A DNA stretch of 54,465 nt, the filler included, from Jimgerdemannia flammicorona (lineage: Eukaryota), in the NCBI GenBank assembly GCA_003990765.1. It is 2 parts of 2 records of this genome, joined end to end, with 100 filler letters (N's around TTAATTAATTAA, not from the genome) between each part and the next. Parts side by side here need not be neighbours in the genome. Positions count along the whole stretch, not along the records: positions 27,285 to 54,465 come from RBNJ01000655.1; 1 more part is not named here. One strand, given 5' to 3'. The notes beneath the pieces were generated by a model. The model saw only the letters and a list, made by a program, of their open reading frames with translations, ran no database searches and had not been told where the DNA came from. Both the position numbers and the translations under genes were made by a program. This document shows positions 7,865 through 54,465 of this stretch, piece after piece; within the stretch, counting starts at the first letter, position 1; every line of letters starts with the position of its first letter.

Positions 7865-7924
7865 TAGAGCTCTGCAACCCAAGCCAACTCAAGTCATCTT
7901 ATCAGAGAATATACATATATCCTT

Positions 7925-16788: not shown

Positions 16789-16807
16789 CTCCTTTCGGTT
16801 CCTGCTC

Positions 16808-17690: not shown

Positions 17691-17699
17691 AATAGTGTT

Positions 17700-27173: not shown

Positions 27174-27540
27174 TTTTTTTTTTTNNNNNNNNNNNNNNNN
27201 NNNNNNNNNNNNNNNNNNNNNNNNNNNNTTAATTAATTAANNNNNNNNNNNNNNNNNNNNNNNNNNNNNNNNNNNNNNNNNNNNGTCAGCAGATCCCCCA
27301 CCAGCTCCTCCCACCGTAACACCTTTGCACCTAGCCCCAGCCGCTGCCCCTCCTCAAATACAAAGAGCCAATGGCCTGCCAATCCCACCCATACTGCCAA
27401 CACCCATCCTACAGTGAGCCAACTATCCCCCACCCCACCCACAAGCCGAGATTTTAAGTCCTCCCAGCGACCCCCCTCCCCCACCAGCCGACGCCCAACA
27501 CCCAGTCTATCCCCTATCTCTGCCCAAAAATCCCCCAAGA
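27174..27540 (-). mobile_element. LINE 3' fragment spanning the gap
   Basis: T-run at 27174-27184; 27284-27540 matches 125-380. Confidence 0.75.
27185..27283. other. Scaffold gap with artificial TTAATTAATTAA linker
   Basis: N-runs flank a six-frame stop linker. Confidence 0.95.
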
Positions 27541-30500
27541 CTCAGATACCCCACACCAATCCTACCAATCTCACCAATAGAACCTTTACCACAACCTCTT
27601 GCAGAGTTGGAAATAGCTCCTATAAGAATACCTAGGCCTATTCCACTTCATCCAAGATCCAGAACACCATCCTCAGGATACCCAAGCATCCCTATCTCTA
27701 GTGATAGTTCAGAAAGTGAATCAGAATCAGAATCTGAACTTGAACTAGAATCAGAAGAAAGTGATGACAAAATGGCCACCTTATTGCCAATCTTTGCAGG
27801 ATACCCAGAGGAAGACTCCAGAGAATTCCTTGATGGAATTGAAGGAATCACAGTCTTGAGAAATCTCTCAGATGAAAGAAAAATCACCATCTACAAAGCT
27901 CAGCTCAGAGAACTAGTCAGAGGAATTTTCCATCAAACAGCAAACAACTGAGATTCAGAACTAGTAAGACAGATACAAGCAGCAATGTCTGATGAGCTAG
28001 AATATAGGGCCATGGTCCACTGGCTTATTGAAAAGTATGCAGGAAATGAAACCCACCACAAGGCTCAAGAATCCATCATGGGGATGAAGATGAATCTTAG
28101 AGAGTCACCCAGAGCCTTCTTCACAAGAATACAGAAGAGAATGCATGCTGCTGGGTTCAATGCCACCAATCAGGACATCATCAGTCCAATGACCTTCATG
28201 AATAGAATTCCCCCAAACATTGCCCAGCATGTTCGCACTCTGGGTATCAGAAGGTCTAAAGAGCAAGTAGATATAGTCTAAGGATTCTTTAATATCAGAC
28301 AAGGAACTACTTGGAGTGATTATGATAAGAAAGAAGATAAAGAAGACATTCTGGTCAAAGCCCTACAAGGACTCCTTCAAGGACAAGAAAGATCTGAAGA
28401 AAGAAGGCCAGCCAAGGAAGGAAAGAAGGATAGAAGTAAAATCCAAGACCTTAGCTCCAAGTTGGACCAATTGGTTGAACAGATATACATGAAAATTGGA
28501 GCTATCAAGACAATAGAGGATACCCACTACAGAGGAGCCAAAGTTATCCACTAAGAGATAACAGGAATTACCAACAAGAAAAAAGAAGGTACCCTGTTTG
28601 AGACAGAGCCCAAGTCCAATGCTTCCACTGTAGACAATTTGGACACTATGCCACTGAATGCAACAACAAAAGAAGTGACTGAAGGGACTCAGAACCACCA
28701 AACTGAAGGAATGACACTCAGTACAAGAAGACTGAAGCCCATCCTGTTGAAGATTTCGAAGAAGTAAGTAACAGTGAAGACTACAGTAATCTAGACTTGT
28801 ACTCCACTAAGGTTATAATTCAGAAAACAGTCTATCTAGCAGAGAAAAGAAAGAGACCTGTAGGGAGACCATTCAGAAATATCAGCAGAAGAATTATCCA
28901 AGAAGAGGATGAAGAACATGAGGAGAAATAAGTAGAAACACCTCCCTGAACCCCCTCACCTTTTGTCCCTGAGACAAATGAGTTGCTACCAAAAGATGAA
29001 GAAATGGAACAAGAAGAATGGGAACCTGCTGCTCCAAAGCCTAAGAAGAAGTACACTCTGAAGACCATATCTAGGGACATTTACAATGAAGTCTGGCAGA
29101 AGATTCAAGAAGTCAAGATGGAAGTCCCTCTCTTGCAATTCTTGTAACTGACACCAGCTGAAGTCTGAAACAAATTACTGAGAACCACCAGGTCTAGCAC
29201 TGGCTGAGTTCCAATCCTACAGCAAGAACCAGCTTCCATCTCTGTCCAAGCAACTGAAAGATATGTCAGTACCTACTTATATGGAGATATTGGAAGACAA
29301 AAAGTGAAAATACTCATAGACACAGGAGCAGCTGTCTGTGTCATTGCCAAATGATTCTTGGACACCCTCCAATGGCCCATTGATGGACCATCCAACTTCA
29401 GTATCATAGTAGCAGATGGAGTCTGAACTCAACCCCTTGGAGAAGTATGAAATATTACCATCTCTCTTAGACACATTCAGTTCTCTATCCCCAAAGCTGT
29501 TGTCACTGAAGCTGTCACCTATGACATGATTCTTGGCACCAACTGGATGAAGGAAATGAATGCAGTTGTTGATATCAGCCAACAAGTACTCAAGTTTGAT
29601 TACCAAGGCAAGAAGTATAGGGTTAAGGTGACCAGCTATGAGCAATCAAAGAAGAAGAAGAAGGTCACTATTCAGGAAGAGTATGCCAGTAGTGAAGAAT
29701 CCACTACAGAAGAAGAAGAAGAATCTGAAGATGGAAATGATCCCAGACTCAATCCTCGAATCAATCTGGTAGATGACCAACCAGAAGATAATGTGTAGAC
29801 CAAGAACACTATCCCTATTACCATTGGAGCTATTGCAGGAGAAGCCAAAGGATGCCCTATATGCCTCAAGAGACATAAGTATCCTGAGCACTCCTCCAAG
29901 ATCATAGGAACAAGGAAATCACCTGGCACAGCCTGCCCAGAGTACAGAAGGAAGAAGAAGAAATGCAGATATATTTCAGAAATACCTGCAACTGAAGCTG
30001 TAGAAGTATAAGCAATTTGGGGTCAAGAATCATCCAAGGAAGAAGAAACTTCTGACCAAGAAGTTCCTGAACAAGAAGCATCTGATGAAGAAGAGGTCCT
30101 CGAACTCATTCTCTGGGATGACCCTCACTGGACACCACCTGAAGACAATGACCCTTGGAATACAGAAGAAGGACCCAGTACAATTACCATTATCCCCAAG
30201 AAAGAAACCCACCAAGAGAAAGCTTTTCAGCTAGGAAGATGTCTACACCAAATAGTCTTCCACTCTCCCTGAGACTACTGCTATCAGTGTCATCTGTTAG
30301 ATCAACAAGAAAGACAGAGACCCCAGAGACCAGAACCCCCAACTACCCTTACACAGTCTACCATCTTTCAAGAAGTCACCACAAGGTTACAAAGTCAATT
30401 TAGGGGACAAGACTTCTTCACCCAAACAGAAATATATCCCTTATCTACCTTTCCCCCAACCTATGATTAAGATGAGTACTGATTCCCAAGACAACAAGAG

Positions 30501-30944
30501 ATAAATAGCCAGGAATATCACTTTCAGACAATGGAATATTGCAATCATGGGAGACATCCTGACTGCCAAGACTGCAGACATCAGAAGATTCACCTCAGTC
30601 ATGATGTTACAGTGCACACTTTGAAGAAAGGAGATAACCAAAGTCAGATCCGAAAAAGCCAGATTCAAAAAAGCCAGACCAAGAAGCCCAGGAAAAGAAT
30701 CCTCAAGATCTATGATTTGGGAGAAGACATCCTAGCTCTTATCAGACATGCAACCTGTCAAGGATAGACAGAAGATACCACCAACTTCATGGAAGCCCTT
30801 GACCCTACAGGAAGGAGGGGAATCAACTACCTCCAAGACTCCTCTACTAGAACCAGATGGCCACACCTCAACCTTAGAGCTTAGAGGCTTTCCACTAGTG
30901 GAGCTTCAGCCTTAGAAAAGCCCAAACTCAGCAAGGATATTGCC

Positions 30945-31345
30945 CAGTATACCCTGATACACCCCAAGGCCAAACCCCCAACCAAAGCCCACCCAGAGGA
31001 TATAGGATATGTATGATCTTCACAGCCTGGAGGATGAATCTATCAAGTCTGGAAAAACCTTCATAATCAGAACCAGATTAGCCATGCAGCTACCCCAAGG
31101 AGCTTATATCCAACTGACCTCAAGGTCCAGACTTGCCAGACAAGGAATAATAGTGGAAGGAGGAACCATTGACCCAGGATATATAGGCAAAATCAAGGTT
31201 ATCTTATACAACAGCAGTACAGAATGGCACCGAATCATTAGAGGACAGAAGATTGCCCAAGCAGTCTTCATGAAGGTCAAGACCCCACAATTACAGGAAG
31301 TCTCTGAACTAACTGAAGGAACAAGACAAGCCAAGGGATTTGGAA
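30945..31345 (+). pseudogene. Trimeric-type dUTPase domain in gypsy A Pol
   Basis: YDLHS, SRSRLA, GTIDPGYIGKIKVILYN, QKIAQ, RQAKGFGSS correspond to motifs I-V. Confidence 0.92.
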
Positions 31346-34238
31346 GTTCAGACAGAAAGGAGGTACATCTCCTTCAAGTCAACCACCTCAAGAGGAATGT
31401 TCCCCAGCAAGTGTATCAGCAACCAGTCAGACTGCACAAGAATCTCATCCTGGAGCCTGGAGAACAAACTACCTTCGAAATCTTTGCACCACCTGACCCC
31501 AGAAACCTTTTCTTTAAACCTAAGGAAGATATCCTACACCTGGACATATAGGGACACACATTCCCTGACAAGATGAACTCAGTATACTCCTGAGCAACCA
31601 ACCAAAGTTGGGAGACCATCATCTTGCCAAAAGGAATCATCATAGGACATCTGGTGTCTTTTCTCAACTGAACTTATAGGGAAGTTTATGAACTAAATCT
31701 ATCAGGAAATGGCAAAAGGTCCCAGAAGAAAATAAAGGCCCCTCTGCGACCCAGGAGACAGTAAAGCCTTCTACCAACATTGAAGAAGAATTGACACCTC
31801 AACAATAACAACAACTAGTAGAACTTCTCAACAAATATCAAGATATCTTCACCACTGATTATAGCAATCTACCATACAATCCATCATATCACCACAGTAT
31901 AAATATAGGAAATACAACACCCATCTAGCAGAAACCCTATAGAATACCCCATCACTTGAAAATATTCAAAAAAGAGCACATCTAAGAACTCTTAGACAAT
32001 GGAGTCATCTGACCCTCTACCAACCCCTGGGCCAGCCCTATACTTATTGTACCAAAGAAAGGAGGATGGAGACTCTGCATGGATTACAGGAAACTCAATT
32101 CAGTCACTGAAAAGGATGCCTATCCTCTGCCCAGAATCAATGACCTCTTGGATCAGTTACAAGATACCAGATACTTCAGCAGTATGGATCTCTTTGCAGG
32201 ATTCCATAAGATTTCCATGGACCCTAAGGACATTCAAAAGACAGCCTTCCTTGCTCTAGGAAAACTGTTTGAATATCTCTGAATGCCCTTTGGACTCTAT
32301 AATGCACCCCCCACCTTTCAGAGGATGATAAATTCAGTTTATGCCCCCTTGATCTACCACTGCCTAATTGTATACATAGACAATTCCAACATCTATTCAG
32401 CAAATTTCAAAGAATACCTACACTATCTAGAGGAATTCTTCAAACTCACCCACAAGAACCACTTGAGACTGAATGCAAAGAAATACTACTTTGGAAAACA
32501 GAAACTTGAATTCCTTGGATTCATAGTTTTGAAAGAAAGAACCCATGCAGACCCAAAGAAAACCAAGAAGATTGACAATTGGCCAGTACCCAAAACCCCG
32601 AAGGAGACACTATCATTTCTGATGCTAGTATCCTACTACAGAAGGTTTATCAAGAACTTTGCTCAAATCACTGCCCCAATCTGGATCCTTCTCAAGAAAG
32701 AAGTACCATTCAAATGGACAGAATCACAAGGAAAAGCCTTCAAAGAACTCAAAAACTGCATGACTATAGTACTAATCCTTGTGCACCCCAATTTATAGAA
32801 GCCATTCATCTTGTATATAGATGTCTCTAAAGATGGCCTTGGAGCAGTTCTAGCCCAAGGAGGATCCAATCAATAGTACCATATAATAGCTTATGCAAGC
32901 AGAGCTATCAATCAGTAGCAGATGAACTATGGTAGCACCAAACTGGAATGCCTTGCAGTCATATGGGTGGTCACCCTGTTCAAGCATTACCTCATTGGAA
33001 AAAAGTTCACCCTGATCACAGACCATGCAGCCCTCAAATGGTTATTCAACCACAAGAAACCCATAAGAATCCTAGCCTGCTGGATCCTTATCCTTCAGGA
33101 TTACAAAATTACCATTATCTACAAAGCAGGGAAAGCTCATAACAATATTGATATACTTTCTCATCAGCTCCAATGAATCAGAAGAAGGGTGTCCTGAGGA
33201 ACTACACCCTAAAGGAAACTCCTCAGACCATCAAGGTACAAGAAGATCTCATCTATAAAGAATATCAGAAACCCATCAAGGACAGATAAGTATAGAAGAC
33301 AAGATCTAAAAACTGTACCAATACTGGCCTCACCTCAGAACCCAAGTCTGAGACATTATCCAGAAATGTGACACTTACCAGAAGTACCAAGGAAAGAAGA
33401 ACTATCAAACCCCTTTGCAACTGATTCCCTCACTCACTCATATCTTTCAGAGATGGGGAGTAGATGTAATTGGACCTCTACCAGTTACACTAAGAAGAAA
33501 TAAATATATCCTTATATTTGTAGAACATCTGACCAAGTGGCCTGAGGCTTTCCCAATGGAAATTGCAGATGCCTTAACCATTGTAGGCCTCCTCCATGGA
33601 CTCACACTCAGATATGGACCCCCAAAAGAACTCATCTCTGACCGAGACATGGAATTCATCAACAACATAATCACAAGTTATGCCTGAATTCACAAGATCC
33701 ACCTCAAAAGGACCACATCATACTATCCCCAGACCAATGGCATGACAGAGAGAATGAACCAGACCATCAAGAAAGGACTTTCCCAAGTCAATTCTACTAA
33801 TTGGGACCTCTGCTTACCTGAGATTCTATAGGAAATTCAGAACACCTCTGCTGCCTCCACCAAACAAAAGCCATTCGAAATGATGTTTGCCAAGAGAACC
33901 AGAACTGCTGACTATGAGAATCTTGGAGACCTCCTCAAGAAGGCAGAACAGTTATGAAATCAAGCCCAAGGACAGATTATCAAAGCCCAAGAAAGACAAA
34001 AGAAGTACTATAATCAAAAACAGAAGGATCAGGAGATCAAGATTGGAGATCAAGTATGTACTAGTTTGGAGAAGTATAATTGAAATGAATTTTGCTGCCA
34101 AACTGGAATCCAAATGGGAAGAACCTTATCTTATATACAATATCAGAGAAACTAGCATCTATTTAAGAAGCATGGATAGATGAACCCTGAGAACACTAGT
34201 ACACATCAATTGTCTCAAGATATACCTCTTCTCACACC

Positions 34239-34737
34239 ATGAACTAGAGAATTGACAACTGTCTCCAAACTCTTATCCTCAGTTCCCTCCAAGCCCTATC
34301 AGTTCCCCTGTCTCAGTTCCAGGAACACATCTTCAGAAAATCTGAGTTCATTAAGAAAACCTCACTTTGGCTGAGAGGCTACTTCAGGTCCACCAGCTGC
34401 AGGCATACTATGCAATTGGAGAATAACTGCAGAATCTTCCTCTCCCAGACCTAGCCTATGTCCATAACACCACTGGCCTGAATAGAAGAAATACTACTGC
34501 TGCAGACAGACTATATACAATTACAAACAAAACCCCTCTGCCTTAATCCAGGCCCAGTTCTCCCTGAATGACCTCCAGAGAATGACACTGCCTACCTACC
34601 TCAGCATCATTCACTAAGTCAAAATCCTATTTCCCAAGAAAGAGGAACCCCTGAAATGGAGTGACCATAGCTCAGATGATGATGATGGAACAGGTATAGA
34701 TACAGAAGCTGCTTATGCCTATTGAGATGATGACTGA
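34239..34737 (+). pseudogene. Extra ORF (ORF3) downstream of integrase, family A
   Basis: ATG overlaps the integrase end. With two frameshifts it reads ...QAYYAIGE*L...TGLNRRNTTAADRLYTIYKQNPSAL...SLNDLQRM..., then an acidic tail. Confidence 0.65.
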
Positions 34738-34776
34738 AGAATAGTCTGGGACAGACTACCCTTCAGTGGGGACTGA

Positions 34777-35224
34777 TGTAACAGACCAAATATACCACCT
34801 GAATTATAACTTAGCCAGATAACATGAACAATTAGCATACTTACTCAGCATGATGTAACTTCCAGTATATCATAGTCACCCATGCCCACCACACTTATAA
34901 TTAGCCAAGACACCAGATCAGGATTATTTACCTGTATCCTGAGGACACACTCATGTCCTGCAGACACACTTATGTCCTGTGGACACACTCATGTCCTGTG
35001 GATACACCTGTACCTAGAGGATACACTCAAGCATTACCAGAAGTAGTAAATCTATAGTTAGCTACATAGTAACCAGATAGCAACCAACTTGTATAAATTA
35101 CCCCAGAGATAAGAGCAAATAAACCTCAGTCTGAAATATAAACACCAAAGAAGTCTCTAAAGATTGAGTATTGGTCCCCTTTCCACTCTGGTCCACTTTC
35201 TAATATAAAGAAGAGTTTGTTATA
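34777..35224 (+). repeat. LTR of gypsy family A, with PPT upstream and PBS-like site plus leader downstream
   Basis: TGTAAC...TGTTATA. Internal ~20-bp GGACACACTCATGTCCTG repeats; TATAAA at ~35092; AATAAA at ~35118. Confidence 0.85.
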
Positions 35225-36170
35225 TTTTTGATTCACTTGCCAGATAAGCCTGAAGATTTGCTGCCTAAGTTCAAGGAGAACTTCGCTGCCTTTTGAAGAG
35301 AAATCCACCGCTTAAGGAATAAGCCATGCTATTGGTATGCTTGCTAGATAAGCCTGAAGAACCCAAGTTTTCACTGTCATTCTTGCTATAAGCCAGTCTT
35401 TCTGATGCAACTTCACAGTAGAGCCAGTCTACGATATAACTCCATGCAAATGAAGCCAATCTTTGACATAACTTGCCAAGAATCCTAGTTAATTTCCAGT
35501 TGAAGCTGCCAATTCAGGAGAATCCGCATCATCTGCCATTTTCAAGTTAACCACCATATTCTCAGTTGAAGCTGCTGATTCAGGAAGAATCTGCACCATC
35601 ATATTCCCAGAAGAACCCGATTCAGAAGAACTCATGCCATTTAAGTAGTATTCCCAGAGAGCTCGCCAATTCAGGAGAATCTGCATCATCTGCCATCCTT
35701 GAGTTATCTGTATTCCCAGAGAATCTTGCCAAATCTGCGACATCTGAATTGTTTGTTCCCAGTGAGCTCATTTCAGAAGAATCCACTGCTAGTATCATTC
35801 CCAGTGAACCCATGCCCAAATTGAGTTATCTGCCAAATTATCAGAATGTCCTGTATAAAGAACCCACCACACTATACAGAGATCACCCACCATCCAAGAA
35901 GGAAACTGCTTGTGCTATATACAAATCCTATCATTCCTAGTTAACCTAAATAAGAAAACCACTCATACTATACAAGATCATCATACAGAAATCACATAAA
36001 GAGAACCACTAAATTGCCAGACCATTATGCACAAGGAGATCATCATGCTATACAAAGAAATCAACTACTACTTAAGAAGGAAACCTATTCACAAATTGCC
36101 ACTATACCCAGAAGAACCGTCCCAATTAGGAAATCAATACACAAATTACTTACAGATATCCAGCTTTGAC
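35225..36170 (+). mobile_element. Family A 5' leader of a second, tandem unit (truncated)
   Basis: Aligns to the reverse complement of 12400-13105. Contains GCCAATTCAGGAGAATCYGCATCATCTGCC repeats. Confidence 0.8.
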
Positions 36171-36583
36171 TATTAAAAGAAAGAAGGTACTGCACCAAAA
36201 CAAGTATACTCCAGATATAGCCAGAGGTACCAAAAACTATAAAAAAGTAGAGAAAACATCAATCCAATATTAATAAAGAGATAACTTATCACTATTATCT
36301 CTCTCTCACTATTCTGTAATAAGTATAATAAACTAACCTAAGGTAAAGTGAGTATAAGTTATAGAAAAGAGACTCAGAAGATTGTTTACCAAAACCTTGT
36401 AATTGGTATGATAGCAGAGAAAGGTTGACAAGTTTTCTATATTAACTGTTTTTTTTAATTATTTATTTATTTAATAATTTTCCTTATAAATACATATTTA
36501 TTTATAGTATTTAATATATAGAAAATTGTTAAAAACAGAACTATCTCCAGATTTCATTATTCTCTAAATATATACAAGAATGG

Positions 36584-36774
36584 TGTTAGCACCCCCTAAC
36601 TCCAGTATCTCTGCTACCATCATTTATTCCCCCCCATATAAAAGAGCCCCCAAAATAGAAAAACCCCCAAATAAAAGAACCCTCCAAAATAAAAAAAACC
36701 CCCAAATAAAAGAGCCCTTTTTGATGACTAAAATTAATAGAAGAGCCTGCTCTTGTATACCGGTATTTACGGTA
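36584..36774. mobile_element. One end of a pogo/Tc1-like DNA transposon
   Basis: Reverse complement of the end reads TA-CCGTAAATACCGGTATACAAG. Subterminal CCCCAAATAAAAGAGCCC repeats. Partner TIR not found. Confidence 0.5.
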
Positions 36775-36855
36775 TGTCCAAACTATCATACAAATACAAA
36801 TCATCGTCCAAAAATTCCAGGATCCTGCCGGAAGCACGTGACAACAGGAAATCAT

Positions 36856-40652
<3,797 letters not shown>

Positions 40653-41612
40653 TTTTTTGTTTGTTCTGACAAATGAAAGGGATAAACTGTGGCGTCGCTG
40701 CGAGGATAAGGGTGACTGCTCAAATCTTATGAGCTAAGCCACTCGATCAAAATCAGATAATGCTCCCAACGAATCGAGGTCCAACTCTATTTGATTCAAA
40801 AATTTGAAATGATTTTTAAAATTCAATTACCCGATCCAAATTTAATTATTTTTAGCTTGTTGGATTCGCCTTATATAGGCGAATTTTAGCACAATAAAAC
40901 CCATTAAATTTGGACATATTTTTATTGAAAAATCAGCACTAATATCAGATATAATTACTCTGATTTAAATTTGATAATGGGTAAAAACTTTCTAAAAAAA
41001 AAAAAATAATAATAAAATAATTAAAACCTACTTTATTCTTTAGTTTACAGTATAGATAAATTTAACTAATATGAAGTTAATTATAAAAATATTTATATTT
41101 ACTTTATATTATCTTTTAGATTATAGTGTAGATAAATTTGAATAATTATAAATTATATCATTTTTTAATTTAGAAAATTCATTATAATAAAGTTAATTAT
41201 AAAGAAGCTATAATATAATAAATAAGAGAACTTGACTGTATATATATAATCTTTATTAGATTTATTAGTTATAATTTTTTATATAATATAAACTTTAAAT
41301 TGCTACTTATACTCTAGTATATAAATGAAAGAACGTCTCATTAGTCAATCAGTTCGATTTTGAAGTGCTTTATATTATGTATAAAGGCAAATTCCTCCTT
41401 TAAATGACGTCAGGGTTCAGAAGCAACTTACAAAATCGCCTTCTGACATCACGAATTCCATCAGTCAGTAAATAAGGCGACTTTATCGTTCCTGAAGATC
41501 TGAAGAATCATCCTCACACTTGTCAAATATACGTCAACCTACATCTGCGCTCTACAAGGTCCTCATAACCAATCAAAGAAACACAGACGGACTGACAAAG
41601 CACTTTGAAAGT

Positions 41613-41909
41613 ATGTCTGGGAAACCCGAAGAAGGCCCGTTGGAACCCTCCAGTGCCACTGAGAGCGAACATGAGAACACCAAAAGTACCCGCGATCCCG
41701 GCCAATCCACCGTGGAGTTAACCCAAAGGGGCCCCGTTAGCATTGCCCCGCTCTTTCATATCTGCGACAAATGTGGAGGAAGGATCCATGTCGGCCAGTT
41801 AATTGACATTAATGGGGTCCTCTTTGACGAGTTATTTCGCAACGCTTGGCCTGATCATGCCAGGGAGAAGCACCGGAACAGCCATATGTCGCTTACTGGT
41901 ACCTATTGA
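41613..41909 (+). CDS. Putative 98-aa protein with a CxxC...HxxxxH zinc-binding-like motif
   Basis: HICDKCGG...DHAREKH in a CpG-retaining island divergent from DHX35. Confidence 0.4.
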   Translation: MSGKPEEGPLEPSSATESEHENTKSTRDPGQSTVELTQRGPVSIAPLFHICDKCGGRIHVGQLIDINGVLFDELFRNAWPDHAREKHRNSHMSLTGTY

Positions 41910-42129
41910 CAAAAGTGGGATACCAATTAACTACGTTGTCTATATGCCGTATATTTTAGAGCAACATGCTTGTTACATTTTCAAAGAATATTTTGTAACT
42001 GAGAGAGTGTAAAAATATGAAAATTAAAGAATGTCAAATATCAACAAAATAGTAAATATAATGGAAATATCAGTGCCAGGGATATAAAAACCAGAAGGTC
42101 AAAATTTAATTACTAAAGGGCCATGCTTT

Positions 42130-43114
42130 TTAGTGTAGTCTTATAAGAATATTTTTAAGTTACAAATATATATATTAGATATTTAAAAGGTTTCAACTAA
42201 GTAAGATATTAAATACTTCATTAGTATTTAGCTTTAATAATTTATAAAGTTTAAATTATTATATTTTTAATATTTAAAATATAATATAAAGTTAATAATA
42301 TATATATTTATAATTCTATAATAAATCTAAATAAAAAATAAAAAATATATATTATAAATTATTATTATCAATTTAGATTAAACTTTAAAATTTATTAATT
42401 TTTAATAATAATAATAATATATTTATATAATAATTTTTTTTAAAAAAGTAAAACTTAGATTATATTATTATTACTAAGTATATTATTTTTATTTTAATAT
42501 AATCTAAATTAAGAATAATTAGAAGATATATAGATATTTAATTATAATATTTAAATCTAATTCTCAATATAATATAACTTTATAGTTAGTAGTTACTTGA
42601 TATTATAGATATAAAAATCTGAGATCTCTCTTAAAATCTTTAATAATATTTAAAATAAATTCTCTAAATATAGACTCTCTTAATATTAGTAAACTTTAGT
42701 ATATTACTGAAAAAGTCTTATAAGAAGAACTATAAGACTTTTTTTTGATTTTATTATCTTTGATACTTTTGAGAAAATAAATTAGAGCTTAGATGAAGAA
42801 TTTACTTTCTTAGTTCTTACTTTTCAAACAGATGATATATATAATTAATAAAGATATTAATTTTTAAGAGAAGAGTAATATAATAAGAATTATATAAATA
42901 AGTAGAAATATAGAAAACAATATATCAAATACTCTGAATATTGAGTTATAATATATAAACTATAGTATATTACTTAACTAGTTTACTTAATATAGTAACT
43001 TATATATATTTTTATTCTAAGTTCTAAATATTTTATCTCAAAGTTATTCAGTATAACTTATTATAACTATAAGTTCTGAATAATGTCTAAATAAATATAA
43101 TTTACTTAAATTAG

Positions 43115-43145
<31 letters not shown>

Positions 43146-43930
43146 CTAAGTACTAGATCTCTTTATTAACTAATTTATAATAAATATAAAATTGTCATAC
43201 TATATCAGTAGCCTCAATCTACCCTTACTTCTCTCTACTCTATCTCAATATACTTTCTCTCTAACTAACTATTTTAAACTAAATATACTAATAATTACTA
43301 AGCTATTTATAATTATAAGCTATCTAAATACTCAGAGATGGTATTATTATTATTAATATCATTATTATAGATATTATCCTATAGATAGATATTTAGAAAA
43401 AATGGTTTAGAAACTATTTTTTTCATTCTTATTTATAAAGATATATATAGATTAAAATCTAAGATGATCTCATTAGTTGACTTCTTTGATAATATATACT
43501 AAATATAATATTTATAATCTAAGTATTAGAGTATTAGAAAGAAATTCTTCATCAGATTCACTATTTGTATATTTTAATAAATTATAGTATTATGAGTTAC
43601 TGGATTATAATTACTGAGAGTATTAGATAGATAATATATACTAGTAATAATATCTATAAATTATTCTCTTGAAGAATAATCTGAGTATATATATATATTA
43701 TATTTGCTAGTTTTTATATTGAAGTTAAAGTAGTTGAAATTAAATTATAGTTATATAATATACTATTTATTAGTTTTTTCTATGATAAGTTTATATATAA
43801 TAATAAGTTACTCAAAGTTAAATAGTAGAGATAGTCTCCAATAAGTTGATTTGAATCAAATCTGAATTTAATTTATTATATAACAGTTTGACCTGAATCT
43901 TAAATACAAAATAATTCAAATTAACTTAAA
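42130..43930. repeat. Extremely AT/TpA-rich degenerate repeat relic, family unidentified
   Basis: CpG nearly absent, TpA excess, sharp boundary with unique DNA. Confidence 0.55.
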
Positions 43931-43934
43931 TTAA

Positions 43935-44110
43935 TCTAAATTACTCAATCTGAATTACTCAATTTAAATTACTTAATCCAAATTACTCAATCTAAATCAC
44001 TTAATCTAAACCACTCAATCTGAACTACTTAATCTGAATTACTCAATCTGAATCATTCAATCTGAATTATCCAATTTAAATTCTTCAATCTAAATTCTTT
44101 AATCTGAATT
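43935..44110 (+). repeat. 15-bp tandem repeat (AATYACTCAATCTGA-like, ~11 copies)
   Basis: Direct periodicity; unit length is a multiple of 3. Confidence 0.85.
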
Positions 44111-45020
44111 AGTCAGGATCTAGAACACTTTGTCCTCAACTATCAGAAGCTCATTAAAAGAGCCTACCAGTCTATCAGCTACTTAGAGATCTGATATAAA
44201 TATAAAATTAATTATTATATCTGCCAATACTATTATAGCCTCACTATAGACCAAATTTCTATCTGGACTAGTCTGAATAGATATGAATAGAGACTTGCTA
44301 AGAAGATCTATCAAATTTTCTAATATACTTCTTATATAATCTCCAATCTCAACTTTATATGAATCTCAGATATTCAGAATCTCTTCTATTCTGAAGTAAA
44401 TGAACTGGAAGTAAGAATAGCTATTGAGATCTACTTCTGAATCCCTCTTAAGACTAAAAACTATAAATCTCATTAAAGCTTCATACTAAATAACAACTCT
44501 AACTAATAGATTAAAGATCTCTCTGATCTATTTAAAGGACAATATATATATATATATATATATCTCAAGAAATAAAAATCAAGTTCCTTATATAGATAGT
44601 ATCAACTATATCAGATAGTGATCTCTAACCTCTTTCCAAATAATCTCAGATTAGTAAGAGAACTCCACAACTCTGGACTAGTAAGAACTATTTATAAATC
44701 TTATTGATTTTTCTACTCTTGATATTGATACTCCTACTGATCTATATACTAACTAGAGAGATACTGATAATGAGGGTAAGAATGATATCATTTCTCTAAT
44801 CCTTAACTTCAAGATAGGTAAAACAGAAATTAATATAGATGTTAATTTCTAAGAAGAGAGAAATATAATAATAATTATATCATAATATACTATAAATAAT
44901 AATCATATAATCTAATGAGTGAAAGATACATAAATGAAATAAATAAGATAAATATAAAATAAAATACCAAACCCTCTGAACACTAGAGTCTATATCAGTA
45001 CTATTGTAACTATATTATTT
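44111..45020 (+). mobile_element. 3' relic of another gypsy element: ORF3 homologue, PPT-like tract, decayed LTR
   Basis: YKIN..I...TSLNRYE*RLAKKIYQIF...ISDIQNL. Purine tract AAGAAGAGAGAA at ~44850 followed by TATAAT (decayed TGTAAC). Confidence 0.5.
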
Positions 45021-45267
45021 AATCAATATATTACCAAAAGTATTTATCTTGATTATAAAATCAAAGTAATTATCTTAAATATAAAAGTTAGTTATTTTGT
45101 AAGTAAATAACTAAGCAGTTATATACTAAATTAGTCATATATATTTAGTCAGAAAACTGTAAAATTTACTTAGTCAATATATATAAATATTCTAGTAATA
45201 TTCAAAATAAACCAGCTCTTAGTCAAGTATAAATCTCTCTTTATATATATATATATATTCTCTGAGT

Positions 45268-46593
45268 GGTTGATATATATTTTTGGTAGGAAGAGTAATA
45301 GTGCTGAATGTATACTGGCTGCTAAAGCTGTAGTATATAGGGTATCATCTGGACTTTCCAGTGTAAGTAGTCAGACAACTTCTGAAGATAGCAAGATCAT
45401 AGATCTGAGCTAGATAGCAAAGTCAGATTGGATGGGAGATTCTGACTCTGCTTGTTGATAGAGGCAAGCTAGGCTTAGTAAACTTTACCAAATACCTTCA
45501 CTGCCTGAGAGCATAGTGGCTAAAGAGAGCAAGTGAGTTGAGGGGCTAGGAGTGGATATCACTCATACAGAGGGTATAGAAAGTCTGGTATTCTCCTTGC
45601 AAAGCAACTGGTGACCTACTTGCAATAGTGGCCCTGGATAGGAGTAAGAGGATGTGATATAAAGGCTTTTGGTGGGGGGTGGTAGATGGTGTAAGGAGAA
45701 TTAGACTTCAGTGACAGAGTGATGAGAGAGAGGAGGACTGGGACCCATGGATGTGGTAATGGGATAGACTATTGCTGGGAGATATATTGGTGGAGGATTT
45801 CCAGCTTAACAATAGAATAGATTGTATGTGGGGCCTAAGGGGGGACCTATGGCCTATAGTATGGCAGAGAGTGGGGATTGGTAAGGAGTGAGACTGAAAT
45901 AGTCTTTAATCTTGGAGTAAGCAGGTGATGTGGTGACTTCCCCCCAAGTTCTGGGTGGTATGGTGGAGGTTTCTGGGACAGAATGTGATATTGAACTATC
46001 AGTCTGGGCACTTAGTGGTAGATGACACTTTTGAGTATAAGGAATATATAGATGTTGGCCAGGAGGAGAGAGTGGTACAAATGCTGAAATATTGGCTTGG
46101 TGAGTGTGAAGTTCTGGAAGAGTTTGGTACTACATTGTGAACCAGTTAGGACTATAGGCCCTGGTGGGGGGGGGAGAGGGGAGAGATAGGGGGATCTCTA
46201 CCAAAAGCTAGTGGGTGAGGTTGAGGATGAATAGTTGACCTTGGACTGGGTTCTGGCAATTTGAGTTGGGCTGGCCAGACATTGGCTGTATGTATTTGAG
46301 GAGGGTCAGTAGGTTGAGGTTAGGGCTAAGGTAACATAATAAGAATGGTTAATACTTGATATTTTGAATAGCTGGTAAAGAGGGTAGAGATCAGATGGGG
46401 GGGGCTGATAGAGTTTGGTAAATTATATTTATCAGAAAAGTGGAGAGAGGGTTTGGATAGTAGGTAGATGAGTTATTCTCTAATAGGAAGAGATAGAGGA
46501 TAGAGAAAGAGATCTGAGGATATTGGGTGAGGGGTGGGGGGGTGAAATTGTATTATTATTTATAGATTGAGATAATAAAGAGAAGTCTGAGTG

Positions 46594-46605
<12 letters not shown>
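45268..46605 (+). mobile_element. 5'-truncated LINE with A/TA tail and TSD
   Basis: VLNVYWLLKL*YIGYHLDFP through the 3' UTR AATAAAG...GTGATTATAAAAAAA. (TA)nTTCTCTGAGT occurs on both sides, ending at 45267 and 46645. Confidence 0.88.
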
Positions 46606-46638
<33 letters not shown>

Positions 46639-46931
46639 TCTGAGTTTCTTAGTAATAAACTCTAAGTTACTCTAATATTTCTAACTAAACTTCAGAAGCC
46701 TAGCTAACTTCTATCAAAATTAAGAATTAATATATATATAAATTAAAAAAAAAAAATTCTTTAAAACTGAATTATAAAAGATTCAGTCTGTGTATAGTAA
46801 GAATAAGTCCCTTATAACTATAGTTACCAAAGAAGAGTAATACTTTATTTCTACTATAAAGAAATAATACTTCTTTAATCTTAGTAAATACTACTAAGTA
46901 AAAGAACAATTAAAAAGACTTCTTAATATAT

Positions 46932-47389
46932 TGTAACAGTATAGCCAGATTCAGAAAAAGGAAATAGAGAACAGACACTTAATCATACCCAGTCCCAAAG
47001 TAGTATAGCCACATAGTTAGCAGTCCCCAATTTTGCCATTTGCTAAATATTTCACAAAGTGCAAGATCGAGTTTCTCGATATAGTATAGCATTTCACAAC
47101 TGGCAAAATATTTTGCAAAGTATTAATGACTCATAACCTAGCCACATAACTCATCTCATAGCTAGCAAACTTGTATAAATAACCCAGTATCTTCGAGTGA
47201 ATAAACCTCAGATCGAAATAGTTTAAAACAAAGAGATAGCAAAGGAACTAGTAAGCCTGTGGGCAGATACACTTTGAACTCACCCACTCTCCTCTGCAAC
47301 TCAAAGGACTCTGAGGAGTCAGAGAAGATCAAGTTTTCAAGATATAGAAATCCGATATACTTTTAAGAGTAAGCATCCACTATGTTACA
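46932..47389 (+). repeat. 5' LTR of family B
   Basis: TGTAAC...GTTACA; ~92% identical to 52219-52677. Confidence 0.95.
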
Positions 47390-50300
47390 ACTTGGTGCCT
47401 ATTGGCTGGTGATTCAAGACGAATCCCTCACTTTCAAGCTGAACAATGAACAACCACCACTACTTGAACAACCACACAAACCAAGCCCCAATACTCAGAA
47501 AAGATGGATATGAGACCACCAGTATTCCATGGATATACTTCAGATGAATCAATCATCATCTTCATTGATGATTTCGAGCAGTATACCACTGTAAGGACCC
47601 TGACAGCAGCACAGCAAGTAGCCCTCATGTCCTTCAGCCTACAAGGTCCTGCCAGAGCAGCATTCACAGCCGCAACCTATGTAGGAAATGATGCCGATGC
47701 TATACTGACAGTACAAAAGACCTAGCTCTGAAATATATATTATACAGATGAGATCAAGCAAGCCCTGAAGGATCAGCTCAATACAACATGCCAAGGAATG
47801 AGCGAGGATCCAAATATATTCTATACTAGAATTCAATATCAGATAATCCTTGCAGATTATGCTGCTGCTATCCGAGATCAAGTAGCCGAAGCAATCTTCA
47901 TGAAAGGAGTCCATCCAGAAATAGCCATGGCTATCTGCTTATCACCAGTAATTCTGGATCTACCACAAAAGGTCACCTATGCTCAGCAATACTGAATAGC
48001 CAGACACCCACAAGACTATACAATGGAGAGAGTTATACATAGGAGTCAGAATCGAGGCACCTAAGTCAACCAGTGTGATTCCCACCACTATGATCAATCG
48101 AAACACACCTCAGCCCAAAGCTACAGAGCAGCAAAAGAACAGTGACCCTATGGAGGAACTCACCAAAAGGTTTGCTGAAATGACTGCCCACCTAGGAGAT
48201 GTGGTAAAGGAAATTCAAGGAAGAGATCGCTGCCCTGTTCAGAAGTTTGCTGCCACTTCAGACAAGAAGAAAGGTACCTGCTATAGCTGTGGAGAAGAAG
48301 GCCACTACTCCTATGAATGCATGAGTGAAACCAAGCACAAGGCTCAACCAAGCAATGCTACATGAAACAAGGAGCAGGCCAATACAATCACTTTTAAAGA
48401 AATCAGAGAATCTGATGAAGAGGAATGGGCAGCCTATCTTGCTCAGACTACCAAGAAGGATGTTTGCAAAGAACCCTACAAGAGACTGCCAGGAAGACCC
48501 AAGAAGAACCCAGTGGAAAAGTAGATGGAAACTGCTATAGAAAGCCAAGCCGAAGAGATGGACCAAGATATGGAGCTGGAGCAAGCAGTTCAAGATATCA
48601 TCCGAGGGACTACTCTAGCCAGTAAAGGAGAAAAAGAAAAGAAGCTTTGCAAGACCAAGACCTTCAAGTATGATATCTTCAAGGACCTCAGTCAGCAAAA
48701 GGTCAATGCAACCTTTGGTCAGCTTGCAGAAATCCCAACATTTAGATAGCAAATGAGGTTTGGACTTGCCAAAACAACTAAGGAATAAGAATGGAAGATA
48801 ACTGAGGCCAATAATATTCAAGAGGACTCAGGAGAAGAAAGTAAGGACAATCACAAAATCTCTGCTTATGCAACATGCCAAATCGAAGATAGAATCTTTG
48901 AAGCCATCATTGATATAGGAGCAGGAGGATGTCTCCTCAGCAAGAAGGCAGCAGACCACCTAGGTTGGGATGTGGAAGAAGCAACTAAGCTGGTGTTCAT
49001 CACAGCCGATGGCACAAGAGCCACACCTCTGGGAAAGATCCGAGATGTTCCCATCAAGATTGGAGGAGCAACCATCCCAGTAGATGTAATTGTAACCAAT
49101 GCCACTAACTATGACATCCTCATTAGCAATCAATGGCTTCATAAAGCCAAGGCAGTAATCGATCTCAATGCCCAGAAGATGCAGATCACCTACCGGGGAC
49201 AGAAGATATGAATTTCCATCAATGTCAATAAAGGAGTCCTGCCTGATATGGAGGAAGAAAAGAGCAAGCAAGAAGAAGCTTATATGGTGACTACTCCAAA
49301 GAAGAAGAAAGTTGGATAGATAAGTAAAGAAGAATGGTGCAAGAAGATCACAGAAGGTTATGCCCCACAAGGAGTCTGTTCTCATGGAATCAAGATGTAA
49401 TGTATAGAGCATGTCAATGATTGCTAGAAAGCTCAACATGGTTACCAAAAAGGATCGCCAACTACTGCCTCTTATCAATAATATCCTCATAACACTGGGA
49501 GACAAAGTACAGTATTACAGCACTTTGGACTTATACTCAGGATTCCACCAAATCAGACTCATAGATATGGCAAGTAAAAAGTCAGCTTTTATCACCCCAG
49601 ATGGAACCTACATCTACCTATGAATGCCATTTGGAATGTGCAATGCACCAGCAAGTTTCCAGCGAATGATGAACAAAATCTTCCACTATAATATGGGAAG
49701 ATAGATGATAGTCTATGTTGATGATGTAATCATCTACAGCCAGACACCAGAAGAACACCTGTAGCACATCTGGTAGATAATAGAAAGACTGAGAAAGCAT
49801 GGCCTATACATCAAGCCCAAAAAATGCAAATTCACAGAAATCGAGATCTCCTATCTTAGCCACATCATCAACTGAGATGGAACACACATGGACCCCCTCA
49901 AGATACAAGCAGTGGCAGTATACCCAAGACCCACTACTGTTACAGAAGCCCAAGCCTTCATGGGACTTGCCTCCTATTATCGCAGATTTATTAGAGGATT
50001 TTCTAATATTGTGGGACCAATCTATGAACTTAACAAGAAGGATACCAAGTTCCAGTGGACTGGCAGACAACAAAAAGCATTTGATGAACTCAAGGTCAGA
50101 CTGACCCAGGCACCCATCCTCAGAAGACCTGACTGGACTTAAGAATTCATCCTACAGACTGATGCAAGTGCACAAGGACTAGGAGCAGTCCTAGCTCAAA
50201 AGAAAGATAAAGTAGAGTATGTCATCACATACCTCAGCCACGGAACCCGAGGAGCTGAAAAAGAATATGAATCCTACAAGTTGGAATGCCTCACAGTCAT

Positions 50301-51719
50301 CTAGGCTGTAGAAAAGTTCCACTACTACTTGGCTGGAAGACACTTCACCATCCAAATGGACCACTTAGCTCTCACCTGGCTACTGACAATCAGACAATCC
50401 AAAGGAATCTATGCCAGATGGATAATGAAGTTGTAAGCTTATGATGTAACCATTGTACACTACTCTGGAAGAACCGATGCCAATGCAGATGCTCTCTCGC
50501 AGACACCCCGAACTACCTTCAACCAACAAATCAATTATGAATAAGGAGCTCTACTATGGAATTATCACATATCTGGGACAGCGAAAGATGCCCCAACATC
50601 TGGAAGAATGGACACAAAAGATTATCAATAGAACATGGAAATAATTCGAAACTGATGGAGAAATACTGAAGAAAGGAAAACTACTAGTCATACCAGAATA
50701 CAAGAAGGAGCAAGTGATGAAATCAGTACACGAACTTGGCCATCTAGGAGGAACGAATACATATGACAAGGCAAGAAGAACAATATGGTGGCCAGAGATG
50801 GAGGAAGATATCAGGCAATTCATCAAGACCTGTGACAAATGCCAGAAACAGAAACAAGACCAATGAAATCAAGCTCCAGGATCAGTACACATAGAACCAG
50901 TACCATTTGCCCATATTGTAATGGATATAATCAGCCCTCTACCCTTGACTTTGGCTGGCAACCGATACATCATTGTCACCATAGACCTTTTTACAAAATG
51001 GATAGAAGCAGGACCCCTTATGGAAGCCAATGTATAGTCAATTGCCAATTTCTTCCACAAAGAAATCATCTGCTGGTTCAAGACCCCAACACAAGTAACT
51101 ACAGATAGAGGAACGGAATTTGTGAACTAGTTCTTTGAAGTTCTTTATAAGAAGTATAAGATCCAGCATATTCAGACCACAGCATATCACCCTCAAGGAA
51201 ACGGACAAGTAGAAAGGACCAACAAAACCCTCAAGAACGTTATTGCCAAGATCTGCAATAACTATGAGAACTGGGATCACTATCTGCCAATAGTATTATC
51301 TGCTCTCTGGGATATCTGATCACAAAGTACCCACTTTACCCCTCGAGAAATGCTGTTCAGAGAAGAATGTTCTCAGGGAACCTTATCATCCAATAGAGAT
51401 ACTGTATGGAAACATATGGATATAGAAATATGGAGGCTATACCAAATCAGGAAGAAGGCTGAGGATTACATAACCAAGGTGCAGACACTACAATGGAGGA
51501 ATGCGGAAAAGACCCACAAACTCTTAGAGATTATCAAGATAGGAGATAAAGTCCTAGTGTATTAGAATATGGTAGAAGCTTCATGGTCATGAAAACTGGA
51601 GCCCAAGTAGGAAGGATCTTATCTTGTGCAAGATATAAAAGGGACCACCTTTTGGCTATAAAAACCCTCAGGCACAATAATCTCCACCACCATTCACTGA
51701 AACTGACTCAAGAAATATC

Positions 51720-52196
51720 ATGGCCAGTAACAAAAGTACTGTGATGGTACTCAAGATCACTAGTGCTGCCCAAAGAGCCATTGAGAGACAATGGTGCACC
51801 ACCAAGCCTCCAACCATAGAGGAGTCTTATGACAGTATCCAAAGCATCATGCAGACTCATCTCTCTCAGATCTCACACTTCAAGACCTATCAGCATCAAA
51901 ACGAATTCCAAGAGTACTTCAAACTTGGCCAAGTACTCAACCAAGACCCAGAAATGACCAAAGAAAATTGGATCACAGAATGCCAGCTCTCCTATTCCCA
52001 GATCACCATTGCTAAGAGAATCCACAAGCTATTCTGAGAGGATGAACCAGCACTAGCCCACCTGTGAGGAGTGACTCCCTCAGACTTCAACCGAGTCAGA
52101 TGACACCATTGGGAAACAGTAATGTAACAAATCGCACAATACAAGACCATACAGACCATTGAAGCCTGGGAGTTTGAATAGATGCTTCAAGGATAA
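51720..52196 (+). pseudogene. Extra ORF (ORF3) downstream of integrase, family B
   Basis: ATG overlaps the integrase end. The frame continues through TGA/TAA/TAG codons explainable as CGA/CAA/CAG decay. Confidence 0.7.
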
Positions 52197-52218
52197 GATC
52201 ATCTATTCAGGAGGAAGT

Positions 52219-52677
52219 TGTGATGGTATAGCCAGATTTGGAAGAAGGAAATAGGGAATAGACACTTGATCACACCCAGTCCCAAAGTAGTATAGCCACA
52301 TAGTTAGCAGTCCCTGATTTTGTTATTTGCTAAATATTTCACAAAGTGCAAGATCGAGCTTCTCAATATAGTATAGCATTTTGCAACTGGCAAAATATTT
52401 TGCAAAGTATTAAATGACTCATAACCTAGCCACATAACTCATCTCATAGCTAGCAAACTTATATAAATAACCCAGTATCTTTGAGTAAATAAACCTCAGA
52501 TCGAAATAGTTCAAAGCAAAGAGATAGCAAAGGAACTAGTAAGCCTGTGGGCAGATACACTTCGAACTCACCCACCCTCTCCTGCAACTCAAAGGACTCT
52601 GAGGAGTCAGAGAAGATCAAGTTTTCAAGATACAGAAATCCGACGTACTTTTAAGAGTAAGCATCTGCTACATTACA
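52219..52677 (+). repeat. 3' LTR of family B
   Basis: TGTGAT...ATTACA; direct repeat of 46932-47389. Confidence 0.95.
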
Positions 52678-53255
52678 ATATATATATATTAAGTTTCTAA
52701 ATAATATCTTATTATCCAAGTTATCTAAAGATATAAAGGAATTGAAATAAGTATTATTAAACTAAGTATTTTTATCCTCTAAGAGAGTAATATTACTTTT
52801 ATTATTAGTATAAAAGTATTTTTTTAATTAAAATTATAGATATTCTATTAATAGTAAACCTAATACTAGTTACTTATATAAATATTACTTATATAAATAT
52901 TATTTATATAGTAAATATATTATTATTAATATATATTAATTTAATTACTATCAAACTTTACTTAATTATACTTTTGATCTCTTTCATCTTATTAGTCTTA
53001 TTGATCTTATTGATCTTATTTGACCTTATTGATCTTATTTATTATATTAACTTTTTAATTTCATTTTATTATTAATCTTATTTATTATTAATATAAGTTT
53101 TAAAAGACTTTCTCTTTATTATAATTATTCTACTATCTAAGTAGACTTCTTTATTATTATACATAATTATCTCTACTATTTTGATAAGTTTTTTTTTTTT
53201 TATATTAATTATACTTATAGTAATAAAAATATTATTATAGTAATTACTATTATTC

Positions 53256-54465
53256 AGGGCAGGTGTCAATCCTGAATGTATATTGGTTTCCCAAGCTATG
53301 GTATGTGGTATATCACCTTGACTTCCCAGTGTGGGTGGTGAAGAAGCTGACAAAGGTGGCTAGGGATTGGATTTGGGCAGGGAGGAGGTCCCAGGTTAGT
53401 TGGGATACTCTTGCAAGACCAGTAGTCAGGAGAGGCCTTGGCCTGGTGGACTTCCCTAAGAGGCTGCACTGCTTGTGAGCTTGGTGATTGAGGAGAGCAG
53501 TAGACCTACAGAGAGGAGGTTGGGTGCCTCTGCTACAGAAGGTGTGGGAGATGTGAACATCCCCTTGAGGGTCCTCCGGAGATCTGCTCTCTTTGGTGGG
53601 ATTGGATGGAATTTAGAGGCTACAGTTCAAGGGCTTCTGGTGGGGAGTGGCTGATGGAGCGCACCAAATTGGCCTGTGCTGGCAAGACAATGAGGAGGAG
53701 GTGGTATGGGGGCCTAATATGTGGCATTGGGATAGACTGCTCCTGGGGGGTGCTCTGCTGGCTATGTTTGATATTGGGGAGGGAGTGGAGTGTCAGCAGG
53801 GGCTTGGCCAGGATCTTTGGCTGAGTGGCTGGCAGGCAGCAGAGATCGGCAAGGAGTGGGACTGGGCAGGTATCTGGTCTTGGAGTGCAGAGGTACAGAG
53901 GTGGCTTCCTCCCAAGTTCTGGGTGGTATAGTGGAGAATGTTGCAGAGGAATGTTATGCTGAATTTCCACACAGGGCATTTGGTAGAGGGTGGACAATTC
54001 AAATTTGAGGAGTGTTATGATGTGGGGCGAGCTGAGGGTCATGTACAGATGTCAGAACATTGGCTGAGAGAGTGTGAGGTTTTAGGGGAATTTTGGGCTG
54101 AAATAGGAGATAGACTGGGTGTGGGGAGGAGGCTGGGGGGGGAGGGTGGTCACTGGGTGGACTTGAGATCTCGACTTGTGGGTGGGGTAGGTGATAGTTA
54201 GCTCACTGTAAGGTAGGTATTAGCAGTATGGGTGGGACTGGCAGGACATTGGCTTTTTGTATTTGAGGAGGGATAGTGGTTGGGGCTGCGGGAGAAGGTG
54301 TTAAGGTGGGAGGGGCTATTGGGGGATCTGCTGACTGGATGGTGGGTGGGTTGGGGTCCTCAGGGGAGTCGACATCACCATTTGGTGGTAAGGATCTGTG
54401 AGCAGAGTGGTGGGAGAGTAGTGATGGTGTTAGATAAAGTAGTCTTTTATTGGGAAGGGGTAGGG
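53256..54465 (+). mobile_element. 5'-truncated LINE (ORF2 C-terminal region), runs off the window end
   Basis: Closely matches the reverse complement of 1-1197. Confidence 0.93.

Follow-up and report, generated by a model that had tools for sequence, protein, structure and literature searches.

CpG-led C-to-T decay of transposons in Jimgerdemannia flammicorona, a genome-wide process distinct from classical repeat-induced point mutation

What kind of process leaves the two long terminal repeats (LTRs) of a single retrotransposon differing by transitions only, and does it amount to repeat-induced point mutation (RIP)? The question is raised by a dead Ty3/gypsy element of 5.75 kb (46932–52677) in a stretch of 54,465 nucleotides of Jimgerdemannia flammicorona DNA, hereafter the window, which consists of two contigs of assembly GCA_003990765.1 (G000) with an N joint at 27185–27284. 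A preliminary description of this stretch proposed a repeat-targeted C>T hypermutation, either RIP-like or methylation-driven. We find that the phenomenon is real, genome-wide and not classical RIP. It is best read as a methylation-linked decay of transposons that is unusually strong, extends to every cytosine context and occurs in a lineage in which only DIM-2-like enzymes were found.

In a global alignment of the two LTRs (46933–47389 against 52220–52677, 458 columns), we counted 19 C/T and 15 A/G differences, one 1-base indel and no transversions, in agreement with the ~34 substitutions, all transitions, and single indel of the preliminary description; the approximately six CA/TG swaps mentioned there were recovered as six swap pairs. 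The T/A state lies in the 5′ LTR at 20 of the 34 differences and in the 3′ LTR at 14. The probability of drawing no transversion among 34 changes is 5e-6 to 7e-5 at the transition/transversion ratio (Ti/Tv) of 2.3–3.1 that characterizes CpG-intact duplicates of this genome, and 0.018 at the ratio of 8 seen in the exons of a DHX35-type helicase gene. Placed in an alignment of 30 LTRs, two of them the window's own and 28 further copies (30 loci kept of 40 scored, the best BLAST matches among 3500 candidates), 17 of the 34 differences fall in CpG, 9 in CpA, 5 in CpC and 3 in CpT context, and at every one of these columns the C/G state is carried by 33–97% of the copies.

Both LTRs belong to one insertion, as indicated by their TG...CA ends, the ATAT target-site duplications read from the sequence on the left (46928–46931) and right (52678–52681), the primer-binding site and the polypurine tract. 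The element lies on the plus strand. Its 458-bp 5′ LTR (46932–47389) is followed, three bases behind, by the primer-binding site (47393–47405), which starts with TGG and is conserved behind sister 5′ LTRs, and the polypurine tract (52209–52217), conserved before sister 3′ LTRs, precedes the 459-bp 3′ LTR (52219–52677). Between them we identified gag with a CCHC zinc knuckle (47504–48330; PF00098), interrupted by stops and read in frames with X at the stops, an aspartyl protease (48828–49190; PF08284/PF13650), reverse transcriptase and RNase H, likewise with stops (49390–50442; PF00078, PF17917, PF17919), and, behind RNase H, the zinc-binding and core domains of integrase (50690–51193; PF17921, PF00665). 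LTR ends, primer site, polypurine tract, duplication and the order protease, reverse transcriptase, RNase H, integrase are all those of the Ty3/gypsy class. Near 49426, a BLAST gap marks ~955 bp missing relative to four sister copies (L066, L068, L070 and L085). The 4-bp target duplications of sister elements are identical in seven of eight cases and one transition apart in the eighth; throughout the family (L001–L030) the duplications are of 4 bp and insertion was nearly always at NTAN/ATAT-like sites. A third frame of ~155 codons with stops (51720–52190), without a Pfam match at 1e-5, lies between integrase and polypurine tract.

The transition excess is not confined to this pair. Among 20 stretches around sister copies, nine had two LTR matches, from which L085 was dropped because its second LTR is cut off; the eight sister pairs and that of the window together span 4172 sites, at which we counted 314 transitions and 11 transversions. 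Internal regions of the family, tallied as two blocks of 6 and 10 copies and excluding the non-homologous part of L084, give Ti/Tv of 17.7 and 17.0, and the 30 LTRs compared in all 435 pairings yield 16.5, a figure that includes alignment noise. Among 49 direct-repeat alignments, those picked by eye as LTR pairs from other families show transitions and transversions of 162/2, 27/0, 13/0, 33/2, 64/7 and 23/1, and in one case 129/28. Old diverged direct-repeat pairs have ratios of 1.3–1.8, and four other repeat pairs in the window have 7.9, 3.4, 2.8 and 0.8; the low ratios (3.4, 2.8 and 0.8; 1.3–1.8) may reflect pre-insertion replication divergence or saturation. Of 400 segments of 500 bp from 20 larger contigs, 181 have a CpG observed/expected ratio below 0.05 and 52 are CpG-intact. 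The stops that interrupt the reading frames arise as had been proposed from CGA, CAG, CAA and TGG, since at 79 of the 80 stop alleles in aligned copies a sister copy reads CAA/CAG, TGG or CGA. The decay to TpA-rich DNA suggested at the same time is a real but modest gain of TpA, and the larger marks are loss of CpG and an excess of CpT/ApG.

Duplicated DNA of other kinds is spared. Our control for this is a CpG-intact island (14190–16900; CpG observed/expected 1.06), a non-hypermutated member of a multi-copy family with 104 matches in G000, on dozens of contigs and several of them linked on one contig. Over 19 loci, which overlap so that some alignments are duplicates, this family keeps a CpG observed/expected ratio of about 0.9–1 with no CpG bias, and its Ti/Tv is 2.3 for the window against the copies and 3.1 for copy against copy, as compared with ~17 in the element family. 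Four CpG-intact tandem duplicates on contig C25 have ratios of 1.3–3.0; the duplicate controls are copies 7–30% diverged, not very recent duplicates. DNA at 41300–42080 was dropped as a further duplicate control, being single-copy. The multi-copy family itself is a short unannotated coding family without a Pfam match for the two frames tested, and its piece at 15880–16180 is inverted and displaced in the window relative to other copies. As unique DNA we used the spliced DHX35-type helicase gene on the minus strand (36633–40679; CpG observed/expected 1.03), whose exons show 24 transitions and 3 transversions against sequencing run X2, spread evenly over contexts (6 of 404 CpG, 4 of 267 CpA, 6 of 334 CpC and 8 of 239 CpT). 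This gene also serves as host marker: an exon of 159 residues is 100% identical to two J. flammicorona proteins, 83% to an Endogone protein and ~70% to other fungi, which places the host in Endogonales, Mucoromycota, and thus outside the Dikarya, the case that the preliminary description had singled out as notable, rather than among ascomycetes. The C>T excess is restricted to transposons. In place of the earlier wording 'repeat-targeted', transposon- or heterochromatin-targeted is the better term.

The context spectrum was determined in the internal regions of the Ty3 family and in an unrelated family of three copies, the C35 element, calling a column C when at least two copies (one of three in the C35 element) have C. 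In the Ty3 regions, CpG is kept in 229 of 1062 cells, and C>T has reached 12% of CpA, 6.7% of CpC and 2.7% of CpT cytosines, against 81 transversions in ~36,700 cells and an upper bound for T>C of ~0.003 per site. The corresponding figures for the C35 element are 490 of 1023 CpG, 7% of CpA, 3.6% of CpC and 1.2% of CpT, with 14 transversions in 13,353 cells. Mutation beyond CpG, claimed from the window alone, is thus present in CpA, CpC and CpT of two families. Expressed as C>T per transversion type, the rates stand as CpG:CpA:CpC:CpT = 696:116:63:25 in the Ty3 family and 702:138:70:23 in the C35 element, and these equal ratios despite a two-fold different transversion clock imply that the process scales with that clock. 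Per cytosine, CpG compares with CpA as 0.77 with 0.13 and as 0.37 with 0.07 in the two families; by context class the order is CG >> CHH > CHG (0.42, 0.076, 0.062). In both families a cytosine mutates more readily after a 5′ A and less readily after a 5′ T, and rates on the two strands are alike (CpA, 0.118 vs 0.120; CpG, 0.43 vs 0.40). One run of a forward simulation from the window element at the measured rates arrives at dinucleotide values of 0.02 for CG, 0.77 for CA, 1.58 for CT and 1.16 for TA, and so matches the observed old AT-rich DNA (0.00–0.01, 0.74–0.91, 1.47–1.62 and 1.08–1.19), whereas CpG-only, CpA-led and flat non-CpG simulations, one run each, fail to yield it; the CpG-only simulation halts at GC 0.38, compared with the observed 0.26–0.28. 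The C35 element (G000:C35:33586-47262; L125, L126) comprises three 4.5-kb copies with reverse transcriptase, one of them inverted relative to the other two; it ends in poly-T, carries terminal repeats of 700 bp, and has the same mutation spectrum as the Ty3 family at half the age; we take its reverse transcriptase motifs to be Penelope-like.

Which enzymes could produce such a spectrum was addressed by a profile search with PF00145, in which six of eight candidates matched, resolving into three DIM-2-like loci and DNMT2; we take the pieces on C58 and C2181 to be parts of a single DNMT2 gene, and the exon on C58 has DNMT2 structures as its best match. The loci on C8187, C11271 and C3657 carry a predicted DIM-2-type motif I and catalytic Pro-Cys. 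In the Protein Data Bank, the whole C8187 protein (P0122) has DIM-2 (9BAP/9BAQ) as its best match, with 136 bits against 92 for DNMT1; 9BAP is named in a paper on the Neurospora DIM2 structure (PMC11315935). The proteins closest to P0122 come from Mucorales and Glomeromycotina, some of them under the label Dim-2, and its catalytic region as a protein query returned three proteins. An Endogone protein (P0277), whose cluster representative matches C11271 at 54%, scores 269 bits to DIM-2 and 152 to DNMT1. Searches with single exons of C3657 and C11271 were weakly nearer DNMT1 and uninformative. The C3657 paralogue (L040:1470-5900, minus strand; P0221, P0276) has no DUF7893/RFD or BAH match, and in its motif I a Cys replaces the Phe that binds S-adenosylmethionine (SAM), with the catalytic Pro-Cys and Glu-Asn-Val kept. 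Of 151 homologues, 123 have Phe here, 21 have Tyr and one has Cys, with six not scored, the sole Cys being that of the C3657 protein itself (both entries). An HP1 chromo-shadow domain is present in G000. DNMT1 was not found by PF00145, an algal DNMT1/MET1-type query, a motif pattern or BAH and RFD searches, nor was DNMT5 by one pattern taken to be characteristic of it; no RID-type locus was among the six PF00145 matches, in the absence of a search with a RID query. Since G000 is fragmented into 35,354 contigs and was searched exon by exon, these negatives are weak. Of the genes that the preliminary description had named for searching (RID/Masc1, DIM-2 and DNMT1/5), only DIM-2 was recovered in these searches, in three DIM-2-like loci. 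A search for HhH-GPD glycosylases gave two matches, presumably MutY and endonuclease III on the basis of their motifs, and none MBD4-like; the expected Ogg1 was also missed, making this search uninformative.

The explanation that we consider moderately probable is passive decay following DIM-2-type methylation of transposon heterochromatin. New insertions would be packed into heterochromatin, where DIM-2-type methyltransferases would methylate CpG cytosines strongly and those in CpA, CpC and CpT to a lesser degree. Methylcytosines would then turn into thymine singly, on either strand and at a steady rate, by hydrolytic deamination with little T:G repair, so that CpG would be lost first and CpA and CpC next, leaving the element AT-rich and filled with stops, while genes, multi-copy ones included, would stay unmethylated and be spared. 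The process may serve in defence, as had been suggested. At soil temperature, methylcytosine undergoes ~2e-7 to 4e-7 deaminations per year, which by rough arithmetic, at an ordinary background rate and with T:G hardly repaired, would account for the loss of CpG seen here within a few million years; passive chemistry is thus feasible. The mutation order CG >> CHH > CHG agrees with the methylome of Phycomyces (CG > CHH > CHG; 3.4, 0.9 and 0.5%), which has DIM2 and DNMT1 (PMC11258239). Phycomyces and Rhizophagus share the phylum of the host and carry 5-methylcytosine on repeats, although what the available parts of these sources report is methylation, not hypermutation (PMC11258239, PMC8647823). 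Methylation-linked CpG decay described in other fungi resembles the present case in its CpG-first C>T changes, repeat CpG depletion and spared genes (Amselem 2015, PMC4352252), and in J. flammicorona, too, CpG-first loss is confined to transposons. It differs in being tied to Masc2/DNMT1, enzymes that our weak searches did not find here; moreover, CpG change alone does not explain the decay in J. flammicorona, where non-CpG cytosines mutate at 25–140 times the transversion rate and old elements reach ~27% GC.

Several observations weigh against passive decay after DIM-2-type methylation. The CpG excess, ~700-fold, is about ten times the vertebrate figure, and passive deamination would consequently need almost no T:G repair; a TDG/MUG-like match is nevertheless present in G000. 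The gene Ti/Tv is raised, at 8, in the small coding sample of DHX35, our least favourable control, and the choice of LTR copies as best BLAST matches has narrowed the spread of mutation load among them. The whole C3657 protein (P0276) is only marginally nearer DIM-2 than DNMT1 (123 vs 113 bits) and sits unplaced on a long branch in a quick tree with one DNMT1 outgroup. In Zymoseptoria, Dim2-dependent mutation is reported not to have tracked methylation level (PMC8016269), which points to help from the enzyme there. CpG-first decay has been tied to enzymes of the Masc2/DNMT1 type, not DIM-2 (PMC4352252), and Neurospora DIM-2 prefers CpT (PMC13297926), the context least mutated here.

A RIP-like process would have to sense homology in the sexual cycle and act in very many weak rounds, CpG-first, which we regard as improbable. 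Like RIP in Neurospora crassa, the process makes nearly pure C:G>T:A changes (314 of 325 LTR-pair substitutions), hits non-CpG cytosines as well, and leaves dead transposons, AT-rich relics and stops from CAA, CAG, CGA and TGG (PMC7296669); the sharp borders between CpG-free and CpG-intact DNA would also suit it. However, CpG rather than CpA leads in both families, and the element has a composite RIP index of −0.82. Neurospora clusters are 91.9% single-strand (PMC7296669), and none were seen here: TG and CA at 21 CpG columns of the 30 LTRs show no overdispersion (P 0.73), neighbouring CpG changes share a strand 199 times where 203 are expected, and runs tests (n=19) detect no clustering, with z from −1.76 to +2.92 and none below −1.96. 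C>T and G>A are binomially distributed across 17 copy-blocks (chi2 15.7, 14 df; short L074 and L071 left out), and mutation load per copy varies no more than Poisson. The tests reject 50 or fewer strand-exclusive rounds per copy (P<=0.004) and only just reject 100 (0.04), and 200 are compatible with the data (P 0.17), which confines a RIP-like process to at least 100 weak rounds per copy. Nor do the controls, at 7–30% divergence, show a homology trigger: the multi-copy family, on dozens of contigs and with some copies linked, and the tandem duplicates keep CpG and a Ti/Tv of 1.3–3.1. With the CpG lead, the missing strand clusters, the spared duplicates and no RID-type gene among the PF00145 matches, the 'methylation-driven' half of the original proposal fits and the 'RIP-like' half does not. 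Published surveys report RIP signatures as undetected in Gigaspora or Mucoromycotina (PMC8647823), RIP indices in Entomophthorales (PMC11105155), and, in a kingdom-wide screen, RIP-like signatures confined to ascomycetes with J. flammicorona scored 'no_rip' (PMC12543289). P0186, Entomophthora muscae DSO57_1016267, which PMC11105155 puts forward as a candidate with RID architecture, ranks among the 150 best matches to the DIM-2-like protein P0121 and may resemble DIM-2 rather than RID. The TpCpG hypermutation of Pucciniomycotina likewise has CpG as main transposon target (PMC3318451), but its signature is ruled out, TCG being the slowest CpG context in both families (0.33 vs 0.55 for ACG, and 0.22 vs 0.35).

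Deamination may instead be driven by the enzyme: a DIM-2-family protein on transposon heterochromatin would itself promote it or block repair in vegetative growth, CpG-first, with the divergent C3657 paralogue as candidate. This is a tentative alternative, rather unlikely in our judgement, though the size of the excess outside CpG as well as within it, the three DIM-2-like paralogues and the motif I Cys beside kept catalytic motifs in C3657 argue for it. Bacterial C5 methyltransferases mutated in the SAM pocket can work as deaminases (PMC3804486), and a mitotic mutator dependent on Dim2 is known in Zymoseptoria tritici, where, as here, the DIM-2 family is present, >95% of changes are C>T and confined to transposons, and there is no tie to RID bursts (PMC8016269). 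That mutator was demonstrated by experiment, whereas the process in Jimgerdemannia is deduced from copies. In Zymoseptoria >98% of C>T falls at CpA and CpG is spared, while here the CpG rate is about six times that of CpA. In M.SssI, mutations of the SAM pocket abolish methylation, but an increase of mutation in vivo was seen with the Gly change only, not with the matching Phe>Ser change (PMC3804486), so that the C3657 Cys is a lead only; the paralogue, on its long branch, may just be decaying or relaxed, and passive and active conversion look alike by sequence comparison. The bolder version, in which an expanded DIM-2 family gives Endogonales a transposon mutator independent of RID and homology, with the C3657 protein deaminating cytosines under chromatin guidance instead of methylating them, seems to us far-fetched. 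We give equally little credence to a hidden maintenance enzyme of DNMT1 or DNMT5 type, such as basidiomycetes have, as the source of the CpG part, with DIM-2 responsible for the non-CpG part only. Phycomyces does possess DNMT1 beside DIM2 (PMC11258239), G000 is fragmented and a J. flammicorona assembly is only 70% BUSCO-complete (PMC12543289), but five DNMT1 searches returned DIM-2-like loci or nothing relevant, and the DNMT5 pattern nothing, weak negatives though these are. Artefact or retroviral-type editing, through assembly chimeras, damage to sample DNA or APOBEC-like editing of cDNA, is hardly credible: the assembly is repeat-rich and of short contigs, yet target duplications match in eight of nine elements, CA/TG swaps require that each of the two strands has a fixed change, genes are unaffected, and the equal rates on both strands exclude cDNA editing, which should be strand-biased.

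Old repeat DNA upstream of the element (42001–46900; GC 0.26, no CpG, CpT over-represented, TpA/ApT 1.12) represents the end state of the process. A single-copy, CpG-intact island with a 137-codon frame lacking a Pfam match (41334–41948) has a sharp border with 5 kb containing no CpG. Decayed tandem arrays of 9-bp and 14-bp units lie at 17694–18077 and 43903–44143, their variation being mostly C/T by eye. A Ty3/gypsy-type element with a dUTPase between protease and reverse transcriptase occupies 27544–36200, and an older, more decayed inverted copy of it (7920–11926) differs by 670 transitions and 85 transversions. GC-rich elements of long interspersed nuclear element (LINE) type lie at 1–6000, 23700–27230 and 53255–54459; their reverse transcriptase is open over 747 codons, they contain a stretch that we take to be endonuclease-like, and the low Ti/Tv of their pairs probably reflects subfamily divergence.

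The Kimura two-parameter distance over the nine LTR pairs is 0.084, whereas transversions scaled by a Ti/Tv of 2.3–3.1 give a divergence of 0.009–0.011, an inflation of 8–10 fold; the internal-region transversion rate gives 4–6 fold. LTR-based and Kimura ages in this lineage are therefore about 4–10 fold too old unless transversions are used, as the preliminary description anticipated. Our literature search, which left most subscription journals outside, found no paper on such a process in Endogonales. A 2017 title by Clutterbuck reportedly already announces CG-linked transposon hypermutation in Basidiomycetes and 'some lower fungi' and may anticipate part of our findings, which tempers their novelty. 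What J. flammicorona adds is a transposon-restricted C>T process of RIP strength in a non-Dikarya fungus scored 'no_rip', and the index of −0.82 indicates that CpA-based indices miss it. The order of rates, CpG > CpA > CpC > CpT, translates into a direct prediction for the methylome. If DIM-2-type enzymes alone suffice, mutagenic transposon silencing may predate RID and need no homology search; such RID-free silencing, if true, would bear on the origin of RIP.

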